Positions 4,898 to 33,745 of a stretch of 64,000 nucleotides of DNA are shown one piece after another. Numbering within the stretch: the first letter of the stretch is position 1; each line of letters starts with the position of its first letter. The notes under the pieces were generated by a model. It worked only from the letters and a program-made list of their open reading frames with translations. It was not told the origin of the DNA and ran no database searches. The translations under genes were made by a program, and so were the position numbers. Location: NCBI GenBank assembly GCA_031082125.1, contig JAVHLM010000002.1:239012-303011 (forward strand). The letters are read 5' to 3'. The stretch is from Vulcanimicrobiota bacterium (GTDB taxonomy: Bacteria > Vulcanimicrobiota > CADAWZ01 > Ess09-12).

Positions 4898-5926
4898 ATG
4901 AAAAGATCTTTCTGTCAGGCCCTCGCGGCAATCCTTATCCTGGCAGCCCTTGCAGCGGGGAACAGCGTTTATGCGGCGCCGGTGAAGTTTCAGGACAAGA
5001 TGCTCTGGATACAGCTGGGGAACCAGATCAAGGACATTGATGACGCCATGCTGGAAAAGATAGCCGAGTGCGGCTTCTCCAAGGTGATTCTGCTGCACTC
5101 TTCAATCAATGAGCAGGGCTACTTCCCTGTCCTCCGATCCCTCACGAAGCGCTGCCATGCAAAGAAGATCAAGGTGAGCATGGGGACTCTTGTCTTCAAG
5201 GACACCTACCAGAAGCCTTACTGGCTCCGCAACCCGGGCCTGAGGAAATGCGACAGGGACGGGAAATACAGCGACACCAAGTATTATCACTACCAGATAT
5301 GCCCTAACAACCCTGTAAACCATGAGTACGCCGCGGGCCTCCTTCTCAGGGAGGCACAGGAGGCCGGCGTGGACGAAATCCATATCGACTATGAGATAGA
5401 GCCCTGCTTCTGCCCGTACTGTGTCGCCGATTTCCAGGAGAAGCACAAGAAGGACCCGCGCGTGCTCTCTGACAAGGACAGGGACTGGCTCGTGTGGCGC
5501 TCCCGCAAGACCCGCGATTTCTTCGAGGTGCTTGCCCGCAAGTGCTACGGGAGCTTCCCCACCTTCCTCATCTCTGCCACGGCGCCCGTCATCGGCCTTC
5601 CCGGCGGCTTCACGGCCTATGGCACAGACCTGCGCTATGAGGATCTCACCCAGTATGTGGACGAGTTCCAGCCCATGATCTACCTTTCGGTGAAGACAGA
5701 CCCCTCCGTTGCCGGCGACAAGTTCGCTGCCATCCAGCGCCGTGTGCTGGACAAGTATGTGGTCCCCGGCATCATTATCAACGAGGAGGGAACGATGCAG
5801 ATAAAGACCAGGGACCGTCTGATGGCGGAGCTTGAAGGGCTCGCCCGCAAGGGGGCAAAAGGCATTGCTGTCTTTGAGGTTCGTTACATCAACGATGAGC
5901 TTAAGGGACTCCTGCGCGACCTTTAG
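4898..5926 (+). CDS. Secreted hypothetical protein, possible glycoside-hydrolase-like TIM barrel
   Basis: Signal peptide MKRSFCQALAAILILAALAAGNSVYA; alternating beta/alpha pattern (VILLHSS, EIHIDYEIE); CFCPYC motif. Family assignment tentative. Confidence 0.45.
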   Translation: MKRSFCQALAAILILAALAAGNSVYAAPVKFQDKMLWIQLGNQIKDIDDAMLEKIAECGFSKVILLHSSINEQGYFPVLRSLTKRCHAKKIKVSMGTLVFKDTYQKPYWLRNPGLRKCDRDGKYSDTKYYHYQICPNNPVNHEYAAGLLLREAQEAGVDEIHIDYEIEPCFCPYCVADFQEKHKKDPRVLSDKDRDWLVWRSRKTRDFFEVLARKCYGSFPTFLISATAPVIGLPGGFTAYGTDLRYEDLTQYVDEFQPMIYLSVKTDPSVAGDKFAAIQRRVLDKYVVPGIIINEEGTMQIKTRDRLMAELEGLARKGAKGIAVFEVRYINDELKGLLRDL

Positions 5927-6735
5927 CCCTCGCGGTCCAGCGCTTCCCTGATGGAGCGCACAAAGTCTCTCACGGTGCTGCAAAGCTTTTTTCTGTCGCC
6001 ACGATGTTCCTCGATGATGGTGGCGAGAGCGCTTCCCACTATGACGGCATCAGCACCCGTTCCCCTGAAGAGAGCCGCATGGTCCGGCTTTGAGATGCCG
6101 AAGCCCACGGATACAGGTGTATCCGTCACTTCCCGCACTTCGTTGATTTTCCCGATGGTCCGTGCTGAGACGGAAGACCGCTCGCCCGTGACGCCCAGCA
6201 CCGCCACGAGGTAGATATAGCCTGTCGTAAGGCCTGCAATGTCCCTGATGCGCTCCCGCGGTGTCGTGAGGCCCACCATGAACACTGATTCAAGATCATT
6301 TGCCGCAAGCCCCTCCATAAGAGGGGCAGCGCTCTCTGGAGGGAGATCGGCCGCCAGCACTGCATTGACGCCGCAGGCGGCGGCATTACGGCAGAAAGCC
6401 TTGATGCCATAAGCATGGATGAGGTTGTAGTAAAGAAGGAGCCCCAGGGGCACCGGTGAGAGCTTTCTCACCCTTTCTATCAGAGCAAGGCATTTTCCCG
6501 GCGTCATGCCGGCGGCGAGAGACCTTGCCGCCGAGCGCTGGAGCACGGGGCCGTCGGCGATAGGGTCGGAAAAGGGAAAGCCCAGCTCGAGGCCTTCGGC
6601 GCCTCCCTCAAGAGCTGCCGAGATAAGGGCAAGGGATGTCTTCTCGTCGGGATCTCCCAGGGTGAAGTAAGGGATAAAGGCCTTTCCGGCCCCCGGGGTC
6701 TCTCTCTTTTCCAGCAGATACCGGCGGAATCCCAT
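5923..6735 (-). CDS. trpA: Tryptophan synthase alpha subunit
   Basis: 270 aa; FIPYFTLGDPD, GVTG and GFGIS motifs of TrpA; last gene of trp operon. Confidence 0.9.
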   Translation of the reverse strand: MGFRRYLLEKRETPGAGKAFIPYFTLGDPDEKTSLALISAALEGGAEGLELGFPFSDPIADGPVLQRSAARSLAAGMTPGKCLALIERVRKLSPVPLGLLLYYNLIHAYGIKAFCRNAAACGVNAVLAADLPPESAAPLMEGLAANDLESVFMVGLTTPRERIRDIAGLTTGYIYLVAVLGVTGERSSVSARTIGKINEVREVTDTPVSVGFGISKPDHAALFRGTGADAVIVGSALATIIEEHRGDRKKLCSTVRDFVRSIREALDREG

Positions 6736-6738
6736 AGG

Positions 6739-7902
6739 TCACCTCTTCATGGCAAAATAGCTATCCAGGTCCTTGTCGCCTCTCCCCGAGAGGTTGATGA
6801 GCATAAGGGAGCCCCTGTGCTCCCCTGCCGCGGCAAAGGCCGAAGCGAGGGCATGGGCAGGCTCAAGGGCAGGGATAATCCCCTCAAGGAGCGAGAGCGT
6901 CTCGAAGGCCTCGAGGGCCTCTTCGTCGGTCACCGTCACGTAGCGGACGCGCCCCCTGTCGCGAAGTGCGCTGTGCTCGGGTCCCACGCCGGGGTAATCA
7001 AGGCCTGCCGCCACCGAATGGGTCTCCTCAATCTGCCCGTGGGGGTCCTGGAGGAGATAGCTCAGGCTCCCGTGGAAGACCCCGGGCCGCCCGAAGGTGA
7101 GGGGGGCGCCATGATGGACACCGTCGCCTTTTCCGCCGGGCTCGACTCCCACAAGCTTCACCTCACCGTCACCGAGGAAGGCGCTGAAAATTCCCATGGC
7201 GTTTGACCCGCCGCCTACGCAGGCATAGACATAGTCGGGGAGCCGCCCTTCCTTCCGGACTATCTGGCGGCGCGCCTCGCGGCCGATGACGCTCTGGAAC
7301 TCCCTCACCATGAGGGGGAAGGGATGGGGGCCGCAGACGGTGCCGAAGAGGTAATAGGTGGTTTCCACATTGGCAATCCAGTCGCGGAGGGCTTCATTGA
7401 TGGCGTCCTTGAGGGTGGCTGTCCCCGAGGTGACGGGAATGACCTCGGCTCCCAGCAGTTTCATGCGCTTCACGTTGGGGCTCTGGCGCTCTATATCGGT
7501 GGCGCCCATGTAAATGTGAGTCTTGATGCCGAAAAGGGCCCCTGCCATGGCGGTGGCGACCCCGTGTTGCCCGGCGCCTGTCTCAGCGATGAGGCGCCCC
7601 TTGCCCATCTTTTTCGCAAGCAGCCCCTGGCCCAGGCAGTTGTTGGTCTTGTGGGCGCCGCCGTGGAGGAGATCCTCCCGCTTGAGGTAGATAGTGGCGC
7701 CCAGCCGCTCAGAGACATTGGCGGCAAGCGTGCAGGGTGTGGGCCTCCCGGCGTAGTCCCTCAGCAGGGCGGCAAGCTCACTCCTGAAGGCTTTCTGCCG
7801 CGCTATGTCCAGAAAGGCGCTCTCGACCTCCTCGAGGGCAGGGATGAGGATCTCGGGCACATAGAACCCGCCGTACCGTCCGAATTTTCCAGTTTTGCGC
7901 AT
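6739..7902 (-). CDS. trpB: Tryptophan synthase beta subunit
   Basis: 387 aa; PLP-lysine motif HGGAHKTNN; GAGQHG; start ATG at 7900-7902 on reverse strand. Confidence 0.95.
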
Positions 7903-7914
7903 GGGTGCTCCTTT

Positions 7915-8697
7915 TCAGCGCGGCGAAGACCGTGCAAGGATGGCCGTGAACTCCCTCAGGCACGCCTCGGGATCTCCTCCCGCCATGAAGGCCGAGCCTA
8001 TGAGAAATGCCCCGGCATAGGGCATGAGCTCCTCAAGGTGATCTCCTGAGGTGATTCCCGATTCGCTTACGATGAGGATTCCTTCCGGGATGAGGGGGGC
8101 GATCCTTTTTGTCGTCTCCCTGGTAATGGTCATATCTTTGAGGTTCCTGTTGTTGATGCCTACCATGGGGGGGCTGAGGGGAAGGACATGCTCCAGGGAC
8201 ACTTCCTCGTGGACTTCCACGAGAGCCTCCATCCCGAGCTCTCTCACAAGGGAGTAAAGGCCGGCAAGCTCGCCGGCTTCGAGGGCTTCGGCAATGAGAA
8301 GGACGGCATCGGCACCTGAAGCCCTGGCTTCGTGAACCTGGTAAGCGTCAATGATGAAATCCTTCCTGAGGAGGGGCAGCTCCACGAGGCGGCGCGCCGT
8401 GAGGAGATCGTCGAGACTCCCCGAGAAGTGGTCCTCTTCAGTGAGGACGCTCATTGCATCGGCATAACGCCCGTAAAGGGCCGCCTGTGTGGCAAGGTCA
8501 GGGGCGTTATGAAAGGTGCCTCTTGACGGCGATGCTTTTTTGTACTCGGCGATGAGGCCATGGCCTTTCCTGCTGAGAGCTCCTGCGAAATCCCTGGGAG
8601 GAGGTGCCTCGCGGTCCCTCAGTTCCCCGAGGGGCACCCTCTTCTTCGCCTCGGCAAGACACTCCCGCTTTCTCTCCACGATGCGATCAAGGATCAC
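7915..8697 (-). CDS. trpC: Indole-3-glycerol-phosphate synthase
   Basis: 260 aa; monofunctional length, no fused TrpF domain; IAEYKKASPS and INNRNL motifs. Confidence 0.9.
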   Translation of the reverse strand: MILDRIVERKRECLAEAKKRVPLGELRDREAPPPRDFAGALSRKGHGLIAEYKKASPSRGTFHNAPDLATQAALYGRYADAMSVLTEEDHFSGSLDDLLTARRLVELPLLRKDFIIDAYQVHEARASGADAVLLIAEALEAGELAGLYSLVRELGMEALVEVHEEVSLEHVLPLSPPMVGINNRNLKDMTITRETTKRIAPLIPEGILIVSESGITSGDHLEELMPYAGAFLIGSAFMAGGDPEACLREFTAILARSSPR

Positions 8698-9740
8698 GGC
8701 TTTCTCACTCCCTCCTCCCCCCGGGAAAGCGAGGCCTGTATCGTGAAGGCCTTGATCTCCTCAAGCTTTTGAAGGGCTTTCCCCTTTTCTATGAGGTTTC
8801 TTGCGGCATTCACGCCTTCCTTGATGGATGGCGAGTGGCCCGCCACGTAGAGGGCCGCCCCGGCATTGAGGAGGGCCATGTCCCTTTTGGGGTCCTTTTT
8901 CACCTTTCGCGGCGTCAGCACATCCCTTATAATCCCGGCGTTCTCGGCGGCGTCGCCGCCCAGGAGGCTCTCGTGCCTGGCCCTGGTGAGGTCGCATTCC
9001 TCGGGGTAGAGGATCTTTGCCGTGATGCGCCCGTCGCGGACCTCAATGTACCGTGAAGGCCCCGTGACAGTAAATTCATCGGTGCCGTCGCCGTGGACGA
9101 CAAGGGCCCGCCTTGTGCCCAGCCTTTCCAGGACATGGGCCACTGTCTCAAGGTGATCGGGCGAGAAGAGGCCCACGACCTGGTGCGTGGCCCCCGCGGG
9201 GTTCGTGAGGGGGCCCAGGAGGTTGAAGACGGTCCTTATTCCCAGGTCCTTGCGCACGGGGGCAATGGCCAGCATGGCCTGGTGGTGCTCCCTGGCGAAG
9301 AGAAAGCAGAAGCCTGTCTTGAGAAGGCATTCCACGAGCTTTTCCGCGGGAAGGGAGAGGGAAAAGCCCAGGGCCTCAAGGACATCGGCGCTCCCGCTCT
9401 TTGATGAGGCGGCCCTGTTCCCGTGCTTGGCCACTCTTATTCCCGCCGAGGCGGCAATGAGAGCTACCGTTGTCGAGATATTGTAGGTGCCGACACCGTC
9501 GCCACCAGTGCCGCAGGTGTCCAGCAGGGGCTCTTTCGTGGGAAAGTTGACGCGGTGGCAGAAGGTGTGCATGACGCGGGCGAAAGCAGTGATCTCATCG
9601 ACGGTTTCCCCTTTTATCCTGAGAGCGGTGAGAAGTGCACCGGCCATCACGGGGCTGTATTCGTTCCGCATCATCTTTTCCATGAGGTGTGCGGCCTCAT
9701 CGGCAGTGAGATTCTCTTTTCTTGTGAGCTTGTTCAGCAT
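8694..9740 (-). CDS. trpD: Anthranilate phosphoribosyltransferase
   Basis: 348 aa; CGTGGDGVGTYNISTTVALIAASAG motif; overlaps trpC start by 4 nt. Confidence 0.9.
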   Translation of the reverse strand: MLNKLTRKENLTADEAAHLMEKMMRNEYSPVMAGALLTALRIKGETVDEITAFARVMHTFCHRVNFPTKEPLLDTCGTGGDGVGTYNISTTVALIAASAGIRVAKHGNRAASSKSGSADVLEALGFSLSLPAEKLVECLLKTGFCFLFAREHHQAMLAIAPVRKDLGIRTVFNLLGPLTNPAGATHQVVGLFSPDHLETVAHVLERLGTRRALVVHGDGTDEFTVTGPSRYIEVRDGRITAKILYPEECDLTRARHESLLGGDAAENAGIIRDVLTPRKVKKDPKRDMALLNAGAALYVAGHSPSIKEGVNAARNLIEKGKALQKLEEIKAFTIQASLSRGEEGVRKP

Positions 9741-9744
9741 GGCC

Positions 9745-10323
9745 TCATCCCTCCCTGCCGGAAAGCACGTTGTCGATTATGGCACCCCCTGCGGCAGTGA
9801 GAATGCTCTCAGGGTGAAACTGCACTCCCGTGACCGGCAGGCTCTGGTGTCGCACTGCCATTACAATGTCTTTCTTGCGCGCCGCCACTTCGAGGACCAG
9901 AGGGATCTCGAGGCCCGCGAGGGAATGGTAGCGCCCTACGGGGAGAGGTGAGGGAAGCCCTGAGAAGATCCCTTTCCCGTCGTGAGTGATGAGGGACGTT
10001 TTCCCATGGACGATCTCCCCGGCATGGCCCACTTTCCCTCCGAAGGCCTCGATCATGCACTGGAGGCCCAGGCAGACGCCGAACATGGGGACTTTCCCGG
10101 CGTAAGTCTTGATAAGGTCTATACTGCACCCGGCGTCACGGGGTGCCGAGGGCCCGGGGGAAAAGACCAGCAGATCGGGCGAAAATTCCCTGAAGAGGGC
10201 TTCATACTCATCCATGGCAAGGTTATTCCTGTATATTTTCACGAGGCAGCGGCGTTTTTCAAACTCGTCCACCAGGTTGTACGTGAAGCTGTCGAAATTG
10301 TCGATGAAGAGTATCTTTTTCAT
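9745..10323 (-). CDS. trpG: Anthranilate synthase component II (glutamine amidotransferase)
   Basis: 192 aa; class-I GATase motifs GVCLGLQ and catalytic H-x-E region (VQFHPES). Confidence 0.9.
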   Translation of the reverse strand: MKKILFIDNFDSFTYNLVDEFEKRRCLVKIYRNNLAMDEYEALFREFSPDLLVFSPGPSAPRDAGCSIDLIKTYAGKVPMFGVCLGLQCMIEAFGGKVGHAGEIVHGKTSLITHDGKGIFSGLPSPLPVGRYHSLAGLEIPLVLEVAARKKDIVMAVRHQSLPVTGVQFHPESILTAAGGAIIDNVLSGREG

Positions 10324-11924
10324 CTCTCTGCAGCTCTTTTCAATGCCGTGAGCGGGGCGGCAAGCTTTTTTTCCGTCTCCTCGTATTCGCTCTCCGCGAT
10401 GGAATCGTAGACAATGCCTGCCCCTGCCCGCAGGTGCGCCTTTCCCTCCAGAATCCTCATCGAGCGGATGATGATGCAGGAGTCCATCTCGCCGTTCCGG
10501 CTGAAGTAGCCGCAGGCGCCGCCGTAATAGCCGCGCTTGAATTTTTCACAGCGTCTCAGGAGCTCCATTGCCTTGAGCTTGGGTGCCCCGGTGAGGGTCC
10601 CGGCATTCATCACCGAGAGGTAGGCATGGAAGGCGTCAATATCTTCCTTGAGCTCACCCTTCACCGTGGTCACAAGGTGCTGCACATGGGAATATTTCTC
10701 CGTGCAGTACGGCGACTCGACGACTCTCGTACCGGGCTTTGCCACGCGGGCGATGTCGTTGCGCGCCAGGTCGATGAGCATGGAGTGCTCGGCAAGCTCC
10801 TTGAAGTCAGTCTTGAGGGAGACCTCGTACCGGGAGTCAAGGTCGGCATCAGGGACTCCTGCAGCGATCCCCCTGGGCCTTGTACCCGCGATGGGCCTCG
10901 TCTCTACGATTGGCTTTTCTGTGCCGGTGACCCTGAGGAGCATCTCGGGCGATGCCCCCAGCAGCACACCGCGCCCGTCGTTCATGTAAAACATGTAAGG
11001 TGAAGGGTTGAGGGAACGGAGCTCTCTGTAAATTGCCCAGGGGTCTGCTATGCCTTCTGCAGTGACGGTCCTGGAAGGGACGGCCTGGAACACATCGCCC
11101 TCGACGATATGGCTTTTCATTGTCTCTACGAGGCTCATGTATTCCTCCCTGCTGAACTCCTGGGAGGTGGTGATGGCTCCCCCGGTGCTCCCCGCCTCAG
11201 GAGGTGCGGTGCCGTTGAGAATGAGGCGCTCGATACGTTCTATCACTTCTGTGGCGTGGAGGAACGCGCCGCCTGCCTCTTCGTCGGTGATGACCATGGC
11301 GTTGGAGACTATGGCAAGCTCATGCTTCGCATGGTCTGCCACGAGCAACGTGGTGCCATAATAGAAGGTGAAATCATCCTCATTAAGGGGATCGCTCAAA
11401 GGCGGGGGAAGGCTCTCGAAGGTGTCTATGAAGTCGTAGGTGAGGGCGCCGAAGAGGCCGCAGAAAAGGTGGCCGGGCCAGTAAGCCGGCGTGAGCTTCC
11501 CGAGGACAAGGCGGAGCACGTGAAAGGGTGTGATGGCTCTCAGCCTCGCCTGCTCGTCAATATGGCGGGGAACAGGGGGAAGAATTCCCTCTGCAAGCGA
11601 AGGCTCATTCCTTATCACGCTCCCCAGCAGGGCAAGATCGGGCATCAAGGCATCTATGAATCTTATACCAAAGCGGTCAAGCGCTTCCAGGCGGTAGCCC
11701 GTTCCTCTCCCGCAGATGCGCAGGCACGGCTCGATGACCATGATGCTCATTTTCCCATAGAAGGGCACGATGTCGGCCGATTCCAGGAACATGGCATGGG
11801 GTGCATGGCCTCCTCCCGAGACCAGCGAGAAGATCTCCGAGGCATCACGGGTGAGGGCGATGCTCTTCACGACGGGGATGAGGCGGAGAGAGCCTCCGGG
11901 CTTCACTGTTTCTCTCATTGGCAC
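10320..11924 (-). CDS. trpE: Anthranilate synthase component I
   Basis: 534 aa; chorismate-binding motifs (GGYxGxxGYF-like GYYGGACGYF); GTG start at 11924 overlapping aroF 3' end. Confidence 0.9.
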   Translation of the reverse strand: MPMRETVKPGGSLRLIPVVKSIALTRDASEIFSLVSGGGHAPHAMFLESADIVPFYGKMSIMVIEPCLRICGRGTGYRLEALDRFGIRFIDALMPDLALLGSVIRNEPSLAEGILPPVPRHIDEQARLRAITPFHVLRLVLGKLTPAYWPGHLFCGLFGALTYDFIDTFESLPPPLSDPLNEDDFTFYYGTTLLVADHAKHELAIVSNAMVITDEEAGGAFLHATEVIERIERLILNGTAPPEAGSTGGAITTSQEFSREEYMSLVETMKSHIVEGDVFQAVPSRTVTAEGIADPWAIYRELRSLNPSPYMFYMNDGRGVLLGASPEMLLRVTGTEKPIVETRPIAGTRPRGIAAGVPDADLDSRYEVSLKTDFKELAEHSMLIDLARNDIARVAKPGTRVVESPYCTEKYSHVQHLVTTVKGELKEDIDAFHAYLSVMNAGTLTGAPKLKAMELLRRCEKFKRGYYGGACGYFSRNGEMDSCIIIRSMRILEGKAHLRAGAGIVYDSIAESEYEETEKKLAAPLTALKRAAER

Positions 11925-12931
11925 TCCTTTGCTGAGAGGTGCATGAGCTTCTCGATTTCGCCCACGAGCTTCGAGAAGCGCTCCGTCGAGATGGTCTGCT
12001 TGCCGTCGCTTTTTGCCCTGTCGGGGTCGGTGTGGACCTCGATAAGGATGCCGTCGGCGCCTACGATGGCCGCCGCCTTCGCCATGATATAGGCCAACTC
12101 CCTGTCGCCGGTACCATGGGATGGATCCACCACGACGGGAAGGTGGGTCTCGCGTTTGAGATAAGGGACAGCGGCGAGATCCAGGGTGTTGCGCATGGCC
12201 GTCTCAAAGGTCCTGATGCCCCGCTCGCAGAGGATTATCCTGGGATTTCCCGCAAGGGCAATATACTCGGCGCACATGATGAGCTCCTCGAGCCGCGCCG
12301 AGAGCCCCCTCTTGAGGAGCACGGGCTTGTCAATCTTCCCTGCCTCAAGGAGGAGGTCGTAGTTCTGCATGTTCCGGGCCCCGATCTGCAGGATGTCATA
12401 ATAGTCGTAATAGCGCTCCACATCCTTTGTGTGGATTATCTCGGTGCATATGGGGAGGCCTGTGACAGCCCTTGCCTCCTTGAGGTATTCCAGGCCTTCC
12501 TCCTTGAGGCCCTGGAAGGAATAGGGCGAGGTGCGGGGCTTGAAAGCGCCTCCCCTGAGCACGTGGCCCCCCTTGTCCTTCACTTGTCTTGCGATCTCGA
12601 TGATCTGCTCGCGGCTCTCGACAGCGCAGGGGCCGGCGATGAAGGTGAAGGTCCCTCCCCCGATGGCGTGGGCGCCCAGGGTGATAACGGTGCTCTCGTC
12701 GTGGAACTTCCTGTTCACAAGCTTGTGGGGCTCCAGGATGGGAATGACGCGCTCCACGAAGGGGAGGGCTTCGAGCTGGAGGGCCTGGAGCTTCCGCTCG
12801 TCGCCGAGGGCGCCTATCACAATCTTCTCCGAGCCGGGGAGGTAAAGGGGCTCAAGCCCCAGATTCTCTATCCCCTTGAGGATGCTGTCGGATTCCTGTT
12901 TTGTCACGTTCTTGCGAAGCACAATAATCAT
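11915..12931 (-). CDS. aroF: 3-deoxy-7-phosphoheptulonate (DAHP) synthase, type I-beta with N-terminal ferredoxin-like regulatory domain
   Basis: 338 aa from ATG at 12931 (RBS GGAGAG 9 nt upstream). Near-collinear with Thermotoga-type DAHPS: MIIVLRK ... GPCAVES ... RGGAFKPRTSPYSFQGL ... KPVLLKRG ... DPSHGTGDR. Track ORF extends to TTG 13039 across the promoter. Confidence 0.85.
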   Translation of the reverse strand: MIIVLRKNVTKQESDSILKGIENLGLEPLYLPGSEKIVIGALGDERKLQALQLEALPFVERVIPILEPHKLVNRKFHDESTVITLGAHAIGGGTFTFIAGPCAVESREQIIEIARQVKDKGGHVLRGGAFKPRTSPYSFQGLKEEGLEYLKEARAVTGLPICTEIIHTKDVERYYDYYDILQIGARNMQNYDLLLEAGKIDKPVLLKRGLSARLEELIMCAEYIALAGNPRIILCERGIRTFETAMRNTLDLAAVPYLKRETHLPVVVDPSHGTGDRELAYIMAKAAAIVGADGILIEVHTDPDRAKSDGKQTISTERFSKLVGEIEKLMHLSAKECQ

Positions 12932-12961
12932 AAATAGCTCTCCGGAAAAATACTGCTTATG

Positions 12962-12990
12962 ATTATAGCCCTTCGGGCATGATCTGTCAA
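12962..12990 (-). promoter_or_regulatory. Predicted sigma-70-type promoter of the aroF-trp operon (TTGACA-17-TATAAT)
   Basis: Reverse strand reads TTGACAgatcatgcccgaagggcTATAAT, ending ~30 nt upstream of the aroF RBS; no leader peptide or attenuator between promoter and start. Confidence 0.55.
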
Positions 12991-13279
12991 TTTCCGACGG
13001 CAGGCGGCCTTCGCACCTGCCCCCTCCCGCGATGCTCAAAGTGCTTCAGACTCCGCAAGATTCTCATACTGCATAAGGGCGTCCAGAATGGGGCGGGTCA
13101 GCGCCTCGCCGTTTCCCTGCCCGGAGGTGATGGCTTTCCACAAAGTCTCGCGCGCCGTGGTCTCTGCCTTCTGATAGGGCTTGCTTTCCGGGTTTTCAAT
13201 GCCCCAGGCCTCACAAAAGGTATGGGTTGCCCGATTGGTGCCATTTTCTAAATATCGGAGTCTGTTCCCATTTTTCCCC

Positions 13280-13308
13280 TTGATCGAAGTGGTTAATGCT
13301 GGTATAAT
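13280..13308 (+). promoter_or_regulatory. Predicted promoter upstream of hflX (TTGATC-17-TGgTATAAT, extended -10)
   Basis: ttgatcgaagtggttaatgcTGgTATAAT in the aroF/hflX divergent intergenic region. Confidence 0.45.
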
Positions 13309-13449
13309 TATTTCTGAATTTTCCTGAAGGGACGATGGACCACGAGCAAGGTAAAAGGGAACCTGCTGGGGCTCAAGCCCCGGCAGAAGCACCTGCTGGA
13401 GAAGATTTACGAGCGGCGCATCCCGCCCCGCCGCGTCATTACCCCCGAG

Positions 13450-14970
13450 GTGGCGCGATACCTCACTGAGCTTTCTCATGAACTGGGCAGGCAGGTGGGG
13501 ATCCTTGTGGACCGCCGGGGCCACGTCTATGATGTCTTCGTGGGCGACGCGAAGGGCATCGAGATCTCGGGCCTGGGGCGCTACCGCGCGGGACGCTCCC
13601 GCTTCAGGGGGCTGCGCTTCCTCCACACCCATCTCCGGGGCGAGGAACTCAGCACCGATGACCTCATGGACCTGGCTCTCCTCAGGTTTGACCTCGTGGT
13701 CGCCCTTGAGGTGCTCCCTTCGGGTCTCCCCGGCCTTGTGCGCATGGCCCACCTTCTCCCCAGGGACTCACGGGAGAAGCTTTACGAGGTCCTCGAGCCT
13801 CTGTCGGTCCATGAGCTGGACCTTGACTTTCACCAGTTCATTGAGTCCCTCGAGGAGGAGTTCGCTCTTTCGGCAAAGAGCTCCGACATATTGGATGGAA
13901 GAAAGCGCGCCCTCCTTATCGGCGTCACGACGCGAAGCACGGAGAAGGCCAGGGAATCCATGGAGGAGCTCTCGGCACTGGCCGAGTCGGCAGGCATTGA
14001 AGTGCTCGAGACCATCATCCAGCGCAGGCAGACCATAGACAACCGCTACGTGATGGGGAAAGGGAAGATCAAGGAGATTTTCATCACGTCGCTCCAGCTC
14101 GGCGCCACCCTCATTGTTTTCGACAGGGAGCTCACGGGCTCGCAGATGAAGTCCATCTCCGAGGCCACGGACCTCGAGGTCATCGACAGGACGCAGCTCA
14201 TCCTGGACATCTTTGCCCAGCGCGCCCGCTCAAGGGAAGGCAAGATCCAGGTGGAGCTCGCCCAGCTCAAATACTCTCTTCCCCGCCTCGTGCTGAAGGA
14301 TGACTTTCTCTCACGCATCACAGGGGGCATAAGGGCCAGAGGGCCCGGCGAGACAAAGCTCGAGATTTACCGCCGCAGGATCAAGGAGCGTATCGACCGC
14401 CTCAACAGCGACATTGATGAGATTGTGAAGGGCCGCGATGAGCGCAGGAAGGCGAGGGAGAAAACGGGCATCCCCGTCCTCTCCCTCATCGGCTATACCA
14501 ACGCGGGCAAATCCACGCTCCTCAACAGCCTCACCGAGAGCAGTGTCTTCGTGGAGAACCGCCTCTTCGCCACGCTTGATCCCACGACGCGAAGGCTTCG
14601 CTTCCCCCGTGAGCGGGAAGTAATAATCACCGATACCGTGGGCTTCATAAGGGAGATACCCCGCGATCTGCTGAGCGCTTTCCGCTCAACCCTCGAGGAG
14701 CTGCGCGAGGCCCACCTCCTCATTCACCTCTTCGACGCGAGCGGCCCGACCTTCAGGGAGCACATCAGCGCAGTCAACGACATCCTCCAGGAGCTTGCCC
14801 TGGACAATATCCCCCATCTCCTCGTGGGGAACAAGGCGGACAAGCTCACTGACGAGGAAAAGCAGCGCATAGAGGAGGAGCTGGGCTGTATCACTATAAG
14901 CGCCATAAAGAAGGAGTCCCTGGGCGTTCTCACCAGCCTTATGGAAAAAGAGATATGGAAAGACGCTTAG
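13450..14970 (+). CDS. hflX: GTPase HflX with ~150-aa N-terminal extension, no C-terminal domain
   Basis: 506 aa from GTG start (track). HflX N-domain (ALLIGVTTRS ... DRTQLILDIFAQRA ... GPGETKLE) and G-domain (GYTNAGKST, DTVGF, NKAD, SAI). First ~150 aa have no counterpart in E. coli HflX. Confidence 0.85.
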   Translation: MARYLTELSHELGRQVGILVDRRGHVYDVFVGDAKGIEISGLGRYRAGRSRFRGLRFLHTHLRGEELSTDDLMDLALLRFDLVVALEVLPSGLPGLVRMAHLLPRDSREKLYEVLEPLSVHELDLDFHQFIESLEEEFALSAKSSDILDGRKRALLIGVTTRSTEKARESMEELSALAESAGIEVLETIIQRRQTIDNRYVMGKGKIKEIFITSLQLGATLIVFDRELTGSQMKSISEATDLEVIDRTQLILDIFAQRARSREGKIQVELAQLKYSLPRLVLKDDFLSRITGGIRARGPGETKLEIYRRRIKERIDRLNSDIDEIVKGRDERRKAREKTGIPVLSLIGYTNAGKSTLLNSLTESSVFVENRLFATLDPTTRRLRFPREREVIITDTVGFIREIPRDLLSAFRSTLEELREAHLLIHLFDASGPTFREHISAVNDILQELALDNIPHLLVGNKADKLTDEEKQRIEEELGCITISAIKKESLGVLTSLMEKEIWKDA

Positions 14971-27909: not shown

Positions 27910-27938
27910 TTGACAACCTGGGGGGACCTCTCTATAAT
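27910..27938 (+). promoter_or_regulatory. Predicted consensus promoter of the DUF2760-Hsp70-Hsp70 operon (TTGACA-17-TATAAT)
   Basis: TTGACAacctggggggacctctcTATAAT ~40 nt upstream of GAAAGGAG RBS and ATG 27977. Confidence 0.6.
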
Positions 27939-27976
27939 TATCACCTGACTATGGTCCCGCCCGGGGAAAGAAAGGA

Positions 27977-28453
27977 GTGATCATTATGGGTGGGTTTATA
28001 AAGGCCTTGCAGCTTTTTTTCCAGGTCCTCAGGGACAGGGAGCTGGCCGAGGGAATTGAGAGACTGAAAAGCGGGCAGCTCTGCGACCCTGCACGGGTCC
28101 TTTACCTTTTCCAGCGCGAAGCGCGCTTTGTGGATTTCATCAAGGAAGACCTGGAGGGTATCGGCGATGCCCAGGTGGGCGCCGTGGCGCGCACCTTACA
28201 CCAGGGGTGCCGGAAGATCCTCAAGGAGTATCTTGTCATAGAGCCTGTGAGGAGCGAAGAGGAGGGCTCGCCTCTCACCGTGGAGAAAGGCTTTGATCCC
28301 TCGGCGATCCGCCTGGTGGGGAATGTGAGCGGTGAGCCCCCTTTCAAGGGAACGCTGGCCCACCATGGGTGGAAGCTTGCCTCTTCCAAGGTTCCGGCCG
28401 CACCCTCCGGCCAGGATTCGTCAATAATCCAGCCTGCCGAGGTAGAGCTCTAG
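27977..28453 (+). CDS. Small cytoplasmic protein, DUF2760-like (158 aa)
   Basis: Track ORF with strong RBS; helical N-terminal half; family assignment from recollection of DUF2760 proteins neighbouring Hsp70 paralogs, not from a search. Confidence 0.5.
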   Translation: MIIMGGFIKALQLFFQVLRDRELAEGIERLKSGQLCDPARVLYLFQREARFVDFIKEDLEGIGDAQVGAVARTLHQGCRKILKEYLVIEPVRSEEEGSPLTVEKGFDPSAIRLVGNVSGEPPFKGTLAHHGWKLASSKVPAAPSGQDSSIIQPAEVEL

Positions 28454-28501
28454 CGGGAGCGAAGATAAATTTGCATTTTCTGTTATGAAATGAGGTGTAC
28501 T

Positions 28502-30322
28502 ATGAAAGATTCAAAATATGTGATAGGAATAGACCTTGGCACTACCAACAGCGCCATGGCCTATGGAGACACCACTGTTCCCTCCGGGGAGCAGCGCCAC
28601 GTGATTTTTGACATCCCGCAGGTGGTGCAGGCCGGCGAAGTGGAGAGCCGCCCCGTCCTCCCCTCCTTCACCTACCTGCCTGGCGACCATGAGCTCCCCG
28701 AGGGGAGCCTTGCCCTTCCCTGGGACGGCGGGAGAGCCTTTGCCGTGGGAGAATTTGCCCGCGACCAGGGCGCCAAGGTCCCCCACCGCCTCGTGTCGTC
28801 CGCCAAGTCATGGCTCTGTAATGGCGGCGTGGATCGCACGGATGCCATCCTTCCCTGGAAGAGCCCAGATGAGGTGGAGAAAATCTCTCCTGTCGAGGTG
28901 TCAAGGCGTTACCTTGCCCACATGAAAGAGGCCTGGGACCATCATCCCGAGATTTCTGGCGGGTCCCCCTTTGAGGACCAGGAGATTGTGCTCACTGTCC
29001 CCGCGTCCTTTGATGCCGTCGCCAGGGAGCTCACCGTGAAGGCTGCCACCGAGGCAGGCTTCACCTGCACCCTGCTGGAGGAGCCTCAGGCAGCTCTCTA
29101 TGCGTGGCTCAGCACCATGGGAGACAAATGGCGCAAGCTCCTTGCCGTGGGCGACCTGATCTTTGTCTGCGACATAGGCGGCGGTACCACAGACTTCAGT
29201 CTTATCTCCGTCAGTGAAGAGGGAGGTGACCTGGTGCTTGAGCGGATTGCCGTAGGGGACCATATCCTGCTGGGCGGCGACAACATGGATCTTGCCCTTG
29301 CAATGGCCGTAAGCAACCGCCTCAGGGAGGACGGCACAAAGCTCGATTCGTGGCAGCTCAAGGCGCTCTGCCAGAGTGCACGCACGGCCAAGGAAAACAT
29401 GCTCCGCGACATGAAGATGAAGAAGCACCAGCTCGTAGTTCCCGGAAGGGGAAGCAAGCTCATAGGCGGCTCTGTGAAAGCCGATCTTACCCGCGACGAG
29501 CTCGAGACGGTGCTCATCGAAGGATTCTTTCCTCAGGTTGCCTCCGATGACCACCCCGAGCGGGGGACGAGGATAGGCCTCACGGAACTGGGCCTCCCCT
29601 ATGAGGCCGATGCCGCCGTGACAAAGCACATCGCAAAGTTTCTCTCTGTCCATCAGCGCTCCATGGCCCGCGGCAGAGATGATGACGGCTTTGTTCTTCC
29701 CACGGCCATTCTCTTCAACGGGGGTGTCCTCAAGAGTCCCCTCATCTGTGAGAGGATAGTGAAAGTGATCAAAAGCTGGGCATCCGACGAGAGTGCCGGG
29801 GAGATTAAAGTGCTTGAAGGCACTGACCGTGATCTCGCCGTGGCGGTGGGGGCCTCCTATTACGGCATGGTGAAGAAGGGGAGCGGGATAAGGATAAGAG
29901 GCGGCACGGCACGGTCGTACTATATAGGCATTGAAACCTCAATGCCTGCCGTTCCCGGCATGAGACCGCCCCTCAAGGCCCTCTGCGTGGCTCCCCAGGG
30001 GATGGAGGAAGGTACAGAGGCGGAGCTTCCCGGCAGGGAATTCGGTCTTGTCGTGGGAGAACCCGTGGAGTTCAGGTTCCTTTCCTCGTCGCAGAGGAAT
30101 GAGGACAACGTCGGGACCCTCGTCGAAGAGTGGGATGACGAGCTCCAGGAGCTTCCCGCCCTCAGGGTCGAGCTTCCCCCCGAGGGTGTCGAGCACAGGG
30201 TGGTGCCTGTGACCCTCAGGGCCAATGTCACCGAGGTGGGAACCCTTGAGCTCTGGTGTGTCGAGGGTGAAGACGGGCGGCGCTGGAAGCTGGAGTTCGA
30301 CGTGAGGGAAAAGGACGAGTGA
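28502..30322 (+). CDS. Hsp70-family ATPase, non-canonical (short beta C-terminal region, no helical lid)
   Basis: 606 aa from ATG 28502 (RBS TGAGGTG). Hsp70 NBD motifs VIGIDLGTTNSAMA, VPASFD, CDIGGGTTDFSL; SYYIGIE beta region; ends ~150 aa after NBD. Confidence 0.8.
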   Translation: MKDSKYVIGIDLGTTNSAMAYGDTTVPSGEQRHVIFDIPQVVQAGEVESRPVLPSFTYLPGDHELPEGSLALPWDGGRAFAVGEFARDQGAKVPHRLVSSAKSWLCNGGVDRTDAILPWKSPDEVEKISPVEVSRRYLAHMKEAWDHHPEISGGSPFEDQEIVLTVPASFDAVARELTVKAATEAGFTCTLLEEPQAALYAWLSTMGDKWRKLLAVGDLIFVCDIGGGTTDFSLISVSEEGGDLVLERIAVGDHILLGGDNMDLALAMAVSNRLREDGTKLDSWQLKALCQSARTAKENMLRDMKMKKHQLVVPGRGSKLIGGSVKADLTRDELETVLIEGFFPQVASDDHPERGTRIGLTELGLPYEADAAVTKHIAKFLSVHQRSMARGRDDDGFVLPTAILFNGGVLKSPLICERIVKVIKSWASDESAGEIKVLEGTDRDLAVAVGASYYGMVKKGSGIRIRGGTARSYYIGIETSMPAVPGMRPPLKALCVAPQGMEEGTEAELPGREFGLVVGEPVEFRFLSSSQRNEDNVGTLVEEWDDELQELPALRVELPPEGVEHRVVPVTLRANVTEVGTLELWCVEGEDGRRWKLEFDVREKDE

Positions 30323-30346
30323 CTTTAAAGAAGCGGAAGGGCTCAC

Positions 30347-33115
30347 ATGGAGGCTTCATCACGCTATTCCATAGGGATTGACCTGGGCACCACCAACTCA
30401 TCGGTGGCCTATATCGACAGGAACTCGCGGGCGAAGAGGCGCCCCATCCAGTTCCTGGAGATCCCTCAGGTCGTGGCCGAGGGCGAGGTGGCCTCGAGGC
30501 TGCTCCTCCCCTCCTTTCTTTACTTTCCCCGCGAGTTTGAAGTCCCCCGGGAGCAGCTTGGCCTCCCCTGGGACAGCGAGCGTGATCATGTCATCGGGGA
30601 GTTCGCCCGCGCCCGTTCAGCACTAGTGGCCGGCCGCGTGGTCTCATCGGCGAAGTCGTGGCTTTGCCATGCCAAAGTGGACCGCAGGGCCCCCCTGCTC
30701 CCCTGGGGCTCACCGGAGGGAGAGCGCACCATCTCGCCTCTTGATGCCACGCGATGCTTTCTCTGTCACCTGAAGGAGGCCTGGAATCACGACATGGCAT
30801 CTCATGATGACGGAGCCCGCATGGAGCAGCAGGAGCTGGTCATCACCGTCCCCGCCTCTTTTGACGAAGCGGCGCGGGAGCTTACAGTGGAGGCAGCACG
30901 GACCTGCGGACTCTCAAGAATCATCCTGCTGGAAGAGCCTCAGGCAGCCTTTTATTCCTGGCTTTATTCCCATGAAGCCTCATGGAGGAGGAGCCTCAAG
31001 GGGCTCTCAGTCATCCTGGTCTGTGACGTGGGAGGGGGCACAAGCGATTTCACCCTGATCAGGGTGGAGCATGGCACCGACGACCTCTCCCTCAGGAGAG
31101 TCGCCGTAGGTGAGCATCTTCTTCTGGGCGGCGACAACATGGATCTTGCCCTGGCCCGCCATATGGAGAAGAAAGTCTTTCATGGCGAAAGGAAGCTTGA
31201 CAGCGCAGGGTGGTCCATGCTCTGCCAGCAATGCAGGAGCGCCAAGGAAAAGGCCTTCATGGAGAACCCGCCGCCCGAGTTTTCCCTCACCATCACAGGG
31301 CGGGGAAGCCGGCTCGTGGGAGGGGCCTCTTCTGCACTCATCACAAGGGATGAGGTGGTGAGCCTTCTGATGGAGGGCTTTCTTCCCGATGTCCTCTACG
31401 GTGAGCCTGTAATCTCTTCAAGGGGAGCGGGCCTCAAGGAGTGGGGCCTTCCCTACGCCAATGACCCTGCCATCACAAGGCACCTCTCGGAGTTCCTTCG
31501 GCACCATCTCCCCGGCAGTGAATTTCCCGACGCGGTGCTCTTCAACGGGGGAGCCCTCTCTCCCGTTGCGCTCCAGGAGCGGATCGTCAATATTCTGGAG
31601 AAATGGCGAGGCCCCGGTAATCCCCTCAGGATCCTTCCCAACCGGTTTCCCGAGCATGCCGTGTCAAGGGGCGCCGCCTATTTCGGGCTGGTGCGCACAG
31701 GCGAAGGGGTGCGCATCGGCGGCGGCACGCCGCGCTCGTACTATGTCGGCGTCGAGGTGGCCGACAGAGGCCGCGGGCTTCCTCCCCCCGGCACACAGGT
31801 ACTCTGCCTTGTCCCGAAGGATCTCCTCACGGAGGAGGTACAGGAGATCAGGGGGCATGAGTTCTCCCTGCTGCTGGGCCGCCCCGTGAGCTTTGCCCTG
31901 TTTTCCTCAACGCGCAGGGATGAAGATCTCCCGGGAGAGCTGCATCTCATCGATCCCGACGAGCTTGAAAAGCTCCCTCCCCTCTACACCGTCCTGTCCC
32001 ATGAAGGCACTGAAGGCGAGGTCCCTGTCCATCTCAGGGCCTGGATCACCGAAATCGGCACCCTTGAGCTCTGGTGCGTCTCCGAGGCTGAGCAGTGGAA
32101 GCTTCAATTTGCCCTCGCGGCGGGCCCTGCCGCCGCCGCAGAGAAAGGTGAAGAGCCGCCATCCCTGGCGCCATCCATAGCAAGGGATGCCAAGGAACTT
32201 GTGGCAGCGGCATTTCAGAAGAAAGGATCGCAGGAGGTGAAGCCCCGCGGCCTTCTCTCGGCTCTTGAAGAGATGACGCACGGGAAGCGCGAGCTCTGGC
32301 CCATGGCCTTTTCCAGGGAAATCGGGGATGCCGCCCTCCAGGTGGCGGGAAGAAGGAGGAGCACTCCCACCGCCGAGGCGAGCTGGTTCAATGTTGCAGG
32401 CTTTGCGCTTCGCCCGGGATTCGGCTACCCTCTTGACGAGTGGAGAATGGAAAAGGTGTGGTCTCTTTTTCCCCACTGGCTCCAGCACCACCGCGATCCT
32501 CAGTGCCGCCTTGAATGGTGGATTTTCTGGCGCCGCTGTGCAGGCGGTCTTGATGAGAAAGCTCAGGAGCAGATCTTTGACAGGGTGAGCCCTTACCTTT
32601 TCCCGGGGAGAAAGCACATCAGGACATTTCCCGGCCCTGCTCCCGTGCGCATTGAATTTCTCGAAATGATGAGGACGGCCTCATGTATTGAAAAAATTTC
32701 AGGACATGGCCGCTCCATGCTGGGCGACTATGTCCAGGCCCACCTGAAAAGCCATCCCGAAGCCGCCGACTGGTACTGGATGATTGCGCGGATAGGCTCC
32801 CGGATCCCCTTTGCTTCAGGTGCTGACAAGGTCCTTGCGCCTGAGACCGTATCCCCCTGGGTGGAGACCCTTGTCTCCCTCCCATGGCAGGGCTCCCAGG
32901 GAGCCTTTGCCCTTTCAAGGATTGCCCGCCTCACGGGCGACAGGGCCCGCGATATCGATGAGCCGCTGAGGATGGCGGCGGTAAAGAGGCTTCGGGCCTC
33001 GGGATGCGATGAAGAACTAATTGCGCCGCTCCTGGAGGTCGTGGAAGACAGGACTGCTGACCAGAGTATGGTCTTCGGCGAGTCACTCCCGCCGGGCCTT
33101 ACGGTAAAATCCTGA
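30347..33115 (+). CDS. Hsp70-family ATPase paralog with ~300-aa Trp-rich C-terminal extension
   Basis: 922 aa; SIGIDLGTTNSSVA, VPASFD, CDVGGGTSDFTL, SYYVGVE; same architecture as upstream paralog plus unique tail. Confidence 0.8.
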   Translation: MEASSRYSIGIDLGTTNSSVAYIDRNSRAKRRPIQFLEIPQVVAEGEVASRLLLPSFLYFPREFEVPREQLGLPWDSERDHVIGEFARARSALVAGRVVSSAKSWLCHAKVDRRAPLLPWGSPEGERTISPLDATRCFLCHLKEAWNHDMASHDDGARMEQQELVITVPASFDEAARELTVEAARTCGLSRIILLEEPQAAFYSWLYSHEASWRRSLKGLSVILVCDVGGGTSDFTLIRVEHGTDDLSLRRVAVGEHLLLGGDNMDLALARHMEKKVFHGERKLDSAGWSMLCQQCRSAKEKAFMENPPPEFSLTITGRGSRLVGGASSALITRDEVVSLLMEGFLPDVLYGEPVISSRGAGLKEWGLPYANDPAITRHLSEFLRHHLPGSEFPDAVLFNGGALSPVALQERIVNILEKWRGPGNPLRILPNRFPEHAVSRGAAYFGLVRTGEGVRIGGGTPRSYYVGVEVADRGRGLPPPGTQVLCLVPKDLLTEEVQEIRGHEFSLLLGRPVSFALFSSTRRDEDLPGELHLIDPDELEKLPPLYTVLSHEGTEGEVPVHLRAWITEIGTLELWCVSEAEQWKLQFALAAGPAAAAEKGEEPPSLAPSIARDAKELVAAAFQKKGSQEVKPRGLLSALEEMTHGKRELWPMAFSREIGDAALQVAGRRRSTPTAEASWFNVAGFALRPGFGYPLDEWRMEKVWSLFPHWLQHHRDPQCRLEWWIFWRRCAGGLDEKAQEQIFDRVSPYLFPGRKHIRTFPGPAPVRIEFLEMMRTASCIEKISGHGRSMLGDYVQAHLKSHPEAADWYWMIARIGSRIPFASGADKVLAPETVSPWVETLVSLPWQGSQGAFALSRIARLTGDRARDIDEPLRMAAVKRLRASGCDEELIAPLLEVVEDRTADQSMVFGESLPPGLTVKS

Positions 33116-33716: not shown

Positions 33717-33745
33717 TTGACAGCGGCCGAAAAGGGGTGTAAAAT
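33717..33745 (+). promoter_or_regulatory. Predicted promoter of kinase gene (TTGACA-17-TAAAAT)
   Basis: TTGACAgcggccgaaaaggggtgTAAAAT ~30 nt upstream of ATG 33777. Confidence 0.55.

Follow-up and report, generated by a model that had tools for sequence, protein, structure and literature searches.

We describe an aroF-trpEGDCBA operon in a 64,000-nucleotide stretch of contig JAVHLM010000002.1 from an uncultured Vulcanimicrobiota bacterium (hereafter the window, whose positions are used throughout), in which a DAHP synthase gene precedes a tightly packed set of tryptophan genes that lacks trpF. Taken as a whole, the locus is best explained as a leaderless, strongly promoted and translationally coupled operon with control at the level of the enzymes and with the isomerase acting in trans, a reading that we consider probable with ample room for doubt. 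Under this model, a consensus sigma-70 promoter would fire ~24 nt ahead of the aroF ATG and yield a transcript that carries the DAHP synthase gene and then trpE, G, D, C, B, and A, which cover six of the seven domains of the tryptophan pathway; translation of this transcript would be coupled via 4-nt overlaps and very short gaps. With the leader absent, there would be no Trp-sensing transcription attenuation in cis, and flux would be set mainly post-translationally—by tryptophan feedback on TrpE and by an aromatic effector on the ACT-like N-terminal domain of DAHP synthase, which would gate the flow of carbon into the shikimate pathway along with that into the Trp branch. Phosphoribosylanthranilate isomerase (PRAI), in turn, would come from another part of the genome.

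The operon comprises seven co-directional minus-strand genes at 5923-12931, identified from the open reading frame (ORF) listing and from Pfam and NCBIfam matches:

11915-12931, minus strand: aroF-like type I-beta DAHP synthase, 338 aa (PF18152 and PF00793; NF006421)
10320-11918, minus strand: trpE, anthranilate synthase component I, 532 aa (Pfam; 1I1Q, E=1e-95; MDQ7821838.1)
9745-10323, minus strand: trpG, glutamine amidotransferase subunit, 192 aa (PF00117; TIGR00566 above cutoff)
8694-9740, minus strand: trpD, anthranilate phosphoribosyltransferase, 348 aa (PF00591 and PF02885; TIGR01245 above cutoff)
7915-8697, minus strand: trpC, indole-3-glycerol-phosphate synthase (IGPS), 260 aa (PF00218 at aa 3-249; NF001377; MDQ7821835.1)
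6739-7902, minus strand: trpB, TrpB1 type, 387 aa (TIGR00263, 582 bits against a cutoff of 392; MDQ7821834.1)
5923-6735, minus strand: trpA, the last gene, 270 aa (PF00290; TIGR00262)

Both anthranilate synthase components, the phosphoribosyltransferase, IGPS, TrpA, and TrpB are thus encoded in the same direction in a compact array, as in whole-pathway trp operons. The trpE ATG lies across the aroF stop codon in a 4-nt overlap (ATGA), and overlaps of the same length join trpE to trpG and trpD to trpC; the gaps measure 4 nt at trpG/trpD, 3 nt at trpB/trpA, and 12 nt at trpC/trpB, the last of them empty. The tight minus-strand arrangement proposed in the first-pass annotation is therefore confirmed, with gaps of 3-12 nt in place of the 3-13 nt given there, and a single co-transcribed polycistronic unit is supported. 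Its description of trpC as monofunctional also holds—the 260-aa product consists of an IGPS domain only (positions 1-253 of a 254-position profile covered; NF001377, 260.5 bits against a cutoff of 260), and no PRAI domain is present. Alignment places the aroF start at ATG 12931, from which the product is collinear with the Thermotoga maritima enzyme from residue 1, and the 374-aa ORF that begins at TTG is over-extended; for trpE, ATG 11918 is the most likely start. The DAHP synthase matches, at 100% identity, a protein encoded on a 368,660-bp contig of an NCBI metagenome-assembled genome (MAG) labelled Candidatus Eremiobacteraeota bacterium, and TrpB (MDQ7821834.1) and TrpC (MDQ7821835.1) bear consecutive NCBI accessions. 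At the far end of the operon, the trpA stop codon overlaps by 4 nt the stop of a convergent, signal-peptide-bearing GHL10-like gene (4898-5926, plus strand), and because the stop codons overlap there is no room for a terminator between the two genes.

The same aroF-E-G-D-C-B-A order, again without trpF, was found in two relatives: L081 (Logan SRR21360499, an 89-kb contig) and L085 (JGI 3300005077, Ga0071116_1005056). A third contig, the one that bears P0003, ends after aroF and the start of the next gene. All operon ORFs are intact across the window, L081, and L085, with pairwise identities of 79-82% for DAHP synthase, 73-77% for TrpB, 59-64% for TrpE, TrpG, and TrpD, and 47-58% for TrpC and TrpA. 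The convergent GHL10-like neighbour downstream is conserved in all three genomes (62-65% identity), with an equivalent overlap of stop codons in L081 (16994-16997), and the upstream neighbours of the operon differ among them. Because relatives only 47-82% identical share the layout with intact ORFs, long-term purifying selection on a working pathway is indicated; judging from these comparisons, the trpF-less layout is old in the clade and kept by selection, and is neither an assembly artefact nor a decaying pathway. Within the clade, TrpC and TrpA diverge much faster than DAHP synthase or TrpB, and TrpC is no closer to the other TrpC proteins of the clade than to those of Acidobacteriota or Chloroflexota (46-49%).

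Upstream of aroF, the following elements were located:

12985-12990, minus strand: -35 hexamer TTGACA (sequence match; conserved in both relatives)
12962-12967, minus strand: -10 hexamer TATAAT, after a 17-nt spacer (sequence match; conserved in both relatives)
12932-12955, minus strand: 5' untranslated region (UTR) of ~24 nt, with the transcription start predicted ~7 nt after the -10 hexamer
12942-12947, minus strand: TTCCGG motif overlapping the ribosome-binding site (RBS), noticed by eye and common to the aroF UTRs of all three genomes
12938-12943, minus strand: GGAGAG RBS, read from the sequence

The promoter matches the sigma-70 consensus at 12 of 12 positions, and a perfect TTGACA-17-TATAAT likewise stands before aroF in L081 and L085. 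The first-pass annotation had correctly recognised this promoter but had placed it ~30 nt upstream of the RBS; measured from the end of the -10 hexamer, the RBS follows at 18 nt, and it is the aroF ATG that lies at 30 nt. Allowing at most one mismatch, three consensus promoters occur in the window against 0.05 expected by chance, each with a start codon 30-38 nt downstream. Since the other two near-perfect promoters also adjoin start codons (at 31-38 nt), short UTRs can be regarded as normal here, and seem to be the rule behind consensus promoters in this genome.

Attenuation of the E. coli trpL type requires a leader that is ~100 nt or longer and contains both a short ORF bearing tandem Trp codons and alternative terminator and antiterminator hairpins, and control of the Firmicutes type uses either a T-box leader RNA or ~11 (G/U)AG repeats in the leader. 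The operon in the window has neither the leader of the former nor the leader RNA or repeat array of the latter. No tandem Trp codons were found in the small ORFs of 12880-13460, nor any TGGTGG in that interval; no terminator-like site was found between the promoter and the aroF ATG; and the aroF 5'UTR folds at only -4.4 kcal/mol. Searches against Rfam returned no match above gathering score in the whole window and, in 12850-13500 at E<=5, just two chance-level matches to irrelevant families, with no T-box or TRAP element. These scans agree with the earlier proposal that a Trp leader ORF and a terminator/antiterminator structure are lacking. Because a 5'UTR of ~24 nt is too short to hold an attenuator with a leader peptide, a T-box, or a target for TRAP, such cis-acting control is, on the sequence, excluded for the operon in this window. 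Small ORFs upstream of aroF (48 aa in L081; 48 and 118 aa in the window) were considered as leader peptides and rejected, given that all are situated upstream of the promoter, none has tandem Trp codons, and conservation is lacking.

The aroF 5'UTR of the relatives is longer, at ~45 nt in L081 and ~140 nt in L085 (region 1809-1955), the latter owing to an insertion of ~115 nt that contains a tandem hairpin repeat, CCACCCGGAGGGTGG, present twice (1842-1875). This insertion was not found in the other 164 fetched loci, had no Rfam match, and gave a fold z-score of -0.2. We rejected the L085 leader as a riboswitch or attenuator on these grounds, and because it lacks a U-tract and neither of the other two genomes contains it.

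The first gene was confirmed as a Thermotoga-type DAHP synthase with a ferredoxin-like N-terminal domain, as originally suggested. The ferredoxin-like (ACT-like) domain PF18152 spans aa 1-67 (nt 12731-12931) and is followed by the PF00793 catalytic barrel; the protein matches NF006421 at 467 bits against a cutoff of 335 and aligns with the T. maritima structures 1RZM and 3PG9 at E=4e-107, collinear over residues 1-330, with the metal ligands Cys, His, Glu, and Asp aligned. In this two-domain architecture and in its conserved metal site, the enzyme resembles that of T. maritima. The comparison of the N-terminal domain with characterised enzymes, proposed in the first-pass annotation, showed the domain itself to be intact, whereas the Thermotoga residues His29 and Ser31 are not kept and are replaced by Leu29 and Leu31 within a PLYLPG motif; leucine occupies position 29 in 105 of 125 aligned homologues. 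His29 is said, from the 2013 work of Cross & Parker, to contact the Tyr hydroxyl in the Thermotoga enzyme, and this reported Tyr-selective site is missing here. The T. maritima enzyme is inhibited by Tyr and Phe (Table 1, PMC6362186). Because Leu29 and Leu31 stand in place of His29 and Ser31, effector specificity probably differs from that in Thermotoga; the effector is probably not tyrosine, at least not in the Thermotoga manner.

TrpE aligned over its full length with the Salmonella and Serratia enzymes (1I1Q, 1I7Q) and keeps the motifs of the Trp feedback site, LLESADI and NPSPYMF, as expected of a feedback-sensitive enterobacterial-type enzyme. Its best NCBIfam match, NF010079, scored 452 bits, slightly below the cutoff of 471, and it is because the score falls below equivalog cutoffs that PGAP names the protein merely a "chorismate-binding protein".

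We compared the layout with two sets of loci. The first, retrieved with TrpC, held 80 loci from species-representative genomes (the best 46-49% identical), and the second, retrieved with DAHP synthase, held 80 metagenome loci with homologues at most 59% identical; the window's clade was among neither, and the L085 contig was likewise outside the second. In the TrpC set, trpF lies between trpC and trpB in every locus that has both, except L073 (Ornithinimicrobium, an actinobacterium); 20 of the 80 are split operons ending at trpC, and a ferredoxin-domain DAHP synthase follows trpA in four and precedes trpE in none. In the DAHP synthase set, nine of the 80 loci are trp-linked. The gene follows trpA in four trp-linked loci, one of which (L096) also has, on the opposite strand, another copy ~2 kb upstream of trpE; it directly precedes trpE in L124, L140, and L160, with only aroF-trpE-trpG linked in L160; and it is placed between trpF and trpB in three contigs from fermentation metagenomes:

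L149, 9998-11011: DAHP synthase gene in the order E-G-D-C-F-aroF-B-A, motif TIWAPG
L150, 9261-10274: the same insertion and motif
L154, 6931-7983: the same insertion and motif

Among the loci retrieved, therefore, DAHP synthase precedes trpE only in the window's clade and in L124, L140, and L160. Position is accompanied by differences in the regulatory motif—PL[YH][LM]PG in trp-linked enzymes encoded before trpE, the Thermotoga-like xH.S.G in those after trpA, and TIWAPG in those between trpF and trpB. This pattern suggests, and proves nothing beyond suggestion, that the regulatory-domain subtype tracks position in the trp operon and that the subtypes may respond to different effectors. Homologues ~60% identical to the window enzyme are not trp-linked. 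The closest outside the clade (L082, 1728-2516; L083, 2362-3150), at 59% identity and of the PLYLPG subtype, have genes for a PhzF-family isomerase and an EamA transporter after them in place of trp genes, which hints at a different chorismate-derived product.

Set against known systems, the operon shares with the classical trpEGDCFBA operon (PMC2395257) the order E, G, D, C, B, A, tight co-directional coupling, and an enterobacterial-type TrpE, but differs from it in having no trpF, free-standing or fused, in its DAHP synthase as first cistron, and in the absence of a leader or attenuator. A contiguous trpC-trpB-trpA run without trpF is also seen in the PriA-reliant trp clusters of Actinomycetota (PMC13055916, PMC5404923); here, in contrast, the MAG is labelled Candidatus Eremiobacteraeota, trpE, G, and D belong to the operon, and DAHP synthase leads. 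Linkage of DAHP synthase to trp genes has been reported as well, with aroG/aroH adjoining trpA in Sargasso Sea scaffolds, along with a possible EGDCBA scaffold (PMC2395257). Unlike in those published cases and in most of the loci that we retrieved, where the gene follows trpA or lies between trpF and trpB, DAHP synthase in the window precedes trpE. The linkage and trpF-less operons are each already documented, and the layout is an unremarkable gene-order variant of a well-known system unless trpF should prove to be missing from the entire genome.

To search for the missing isomerase, we built a TrpF hidden Markov model (HMM) from 60 TrpF domains adjoining trpC in related loci. Against all six-frame ORFs of at least 50 aa in the window it found nothing (best E-value 2.4), and it detected no trpF in the loci of L081 and L085. 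Nor did the Pfam annotation of the remaining window genes include PRAI, HisA, or HisF; the other annotated genes have housekeeping functions (priA helicase, def, fmt, rlmN, upp, clpB, obg, rpsF, dnaB, hflX). Neither trpF nor hisA thus occurs in the window or in the ~20-kb pieces of the two relatives. Local hhalign comparison of the TrpF profile with single window ORFs left even the positive controls, TrpA and TrpC, below 5%. The GHL10-like neighbour was rejected as a substitute isomerase, since its signal peptide marks it as exported. Together with the IGPS-only trpC, the HMM result upholds the earlier claim that trpF is absent from the operon, from which it follows that the isomerase is either unlinked or replaced.

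How, then, is the operon controlled? Attenuation, which the first-pass annotation had set aside in favour of allostery, is ruled out as described above; the allosteric half of that proposal is plausible, because TrpE keeps its feedback motifs and the regulatory domain of DAHP synthase is intact, and would place control at these two enzymes. Several points nonetheless weigh against the picture of a constitutive, allosterically governed operon: the transcription start, the constitutive character, and the effectors are all deduced from sequence; the N-terminal domain of DAHP synthase has leucine at the position of Thermotoga His29; a near-consensus promoter would also fit tight repression by a trans-acting protein; and a small TTCCGG motif just downstream of the -10 hexamer is common to all three relatives. 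It is thus conceivable, if rather unlikely in our estimation, that a trans-acting repressor at or just downstream of the promoter regulates the operon in response to tryptophan or aromatic amino acids, such that control is not purely allosteric or constitutive. Repressors do typically target strong consensus promoters, and TTCCGG is found at a distance of 13-14 nt from the -10 hexamer both in the window and in L081, and directly before the RBS in L085. In L085, however, the motif is parted from the promoter by the ~115-nt insertion, which argues against an operator tied to the promoter; it is, moreover, only 6 nt long and overlaps the RBS in the window. No conserved regulator gene stands beside the operon, the upstream neighbours of which differ in all three genomes, and if this were the sole DAHP synthase of the genome, Trp-specific repression would be expected to starve Phe and Tyr synthesis.

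The source of the isomerase, the gene for which would lie outside the window, can be weighed in a similar way. We regard an unlinked canonical trpF as the most likely source, with a somewhat better than even chance of being correct, because lone trpF genes are common; they occur in bacteria with split trp operons, and 20 of the 80 loci in the TrpC set end at trpC. That the lineage instead lacks canonical trpF, and that the step falls, as it does in Actinomycetota, to a (beta-alpha)8 isomerase encoded at another locus, whether a dual-substrate enzyme of the HisA type (PriA-like) or a different one, seems to us a minority prospect. It would account for the precise excision of trpF from an otherwise complete, coupled operon and for its absence in three divergent relatives, and HisA enzymes are reported to retain latent, low TrpF activity across long evolutionary spans (PMC4732765). 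Among the 80 unrelated loci of the TrpC set, furthermore, the sole other contiguous C-B-A junction without trpF is that of Ornithinimicrobium (L073), and loss of trpF with take-over by PriA has been reported for Actinomycetota (PMC13055916); this parallel weighs against an unlinked trpF and weakly favours replacement over relocation. PriA is, on the other hand, described as exclusive to Actinomycetota (PMC13055916). A more elaborate version, in which canonical trpF was lost, a dual-substrate HisA-type or non-orthologous isomerase took over, and the PL[YH][LM]PG DAHP synthase is dedicated to Trp with a non-tyrosine effector, appears doubtful to us. Finally, one essential step without a gene within 64 kb might point to a broken pathway, whether a decaying operon in a Trp auxotroph or an artefact of assembly or binning. 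Such a failure is very improbable: three assemblies, which are independent and come from different samples, have the layout in common, each of the seven ORFs is intact (47-82% identity), catalytic motifs are present in DAHP synthase and TrpE, and the trpC-trpB gap is just 12 nt, with consecutive NCBI accessions for the two products. An unlinked trpF serving an enzymatically controlled operon accordingly remains our preferred account.

Beyond the operon, the second perfect TTGACA-17-TATAAT in the window (27910-27938, plus strand) lies 38 nt before a three-gene set (27910-33115), conserved and functionally uncharacterised, which we describe as a chaperone-like trio:

27977-28453, plus strand: DUF2760 protein
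28490-30322, plus strand: HSP70-like protein
30347-33115, plus strand: HSP70-like protein with a C-terminal DUF3731 "DnaK-related" domain

The third promoter, with one mismatch (33717-33745, plus strand), stands 31 nt before a gene for a 1174-aa fusion of a Ser/Thr kinase to a long TPR array (to 37301). On the other side of the aroF promoter, hflX (13450-14970, plus strand) encodes a protein with an N-terminal extension of ~150 aa before the TIGR03156 region, and is preceded by a promoter-like site with an extended -10 TG (13280-13308) and a leader of ~140 nt; no function is assigned to the ~290 bp that separate the promoters of aroF and hflX (12991-13280).

In a phylum about which little is known, the operon offers a variant gene order of the biosynthetic operon that has been studied most. 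It shows that a DAHP synthase gene can be brought in to head the trp genes and that such an operon can do without a Trp-sensing leader. Should trpF indeed be missing from the genome, the lineage would provide a second, independent case of the PriA type, outside the Actinomycetota—and, as such, nature's own repeat of the recruitment of an enzyme once a gene has been lost. More broadly, the relationship between the position of DAHP synthase genes and their regulatory subtype may offer a handle for predicting effectors in the uncharacterised majority of ferredoxin-domain DAHP synthases.

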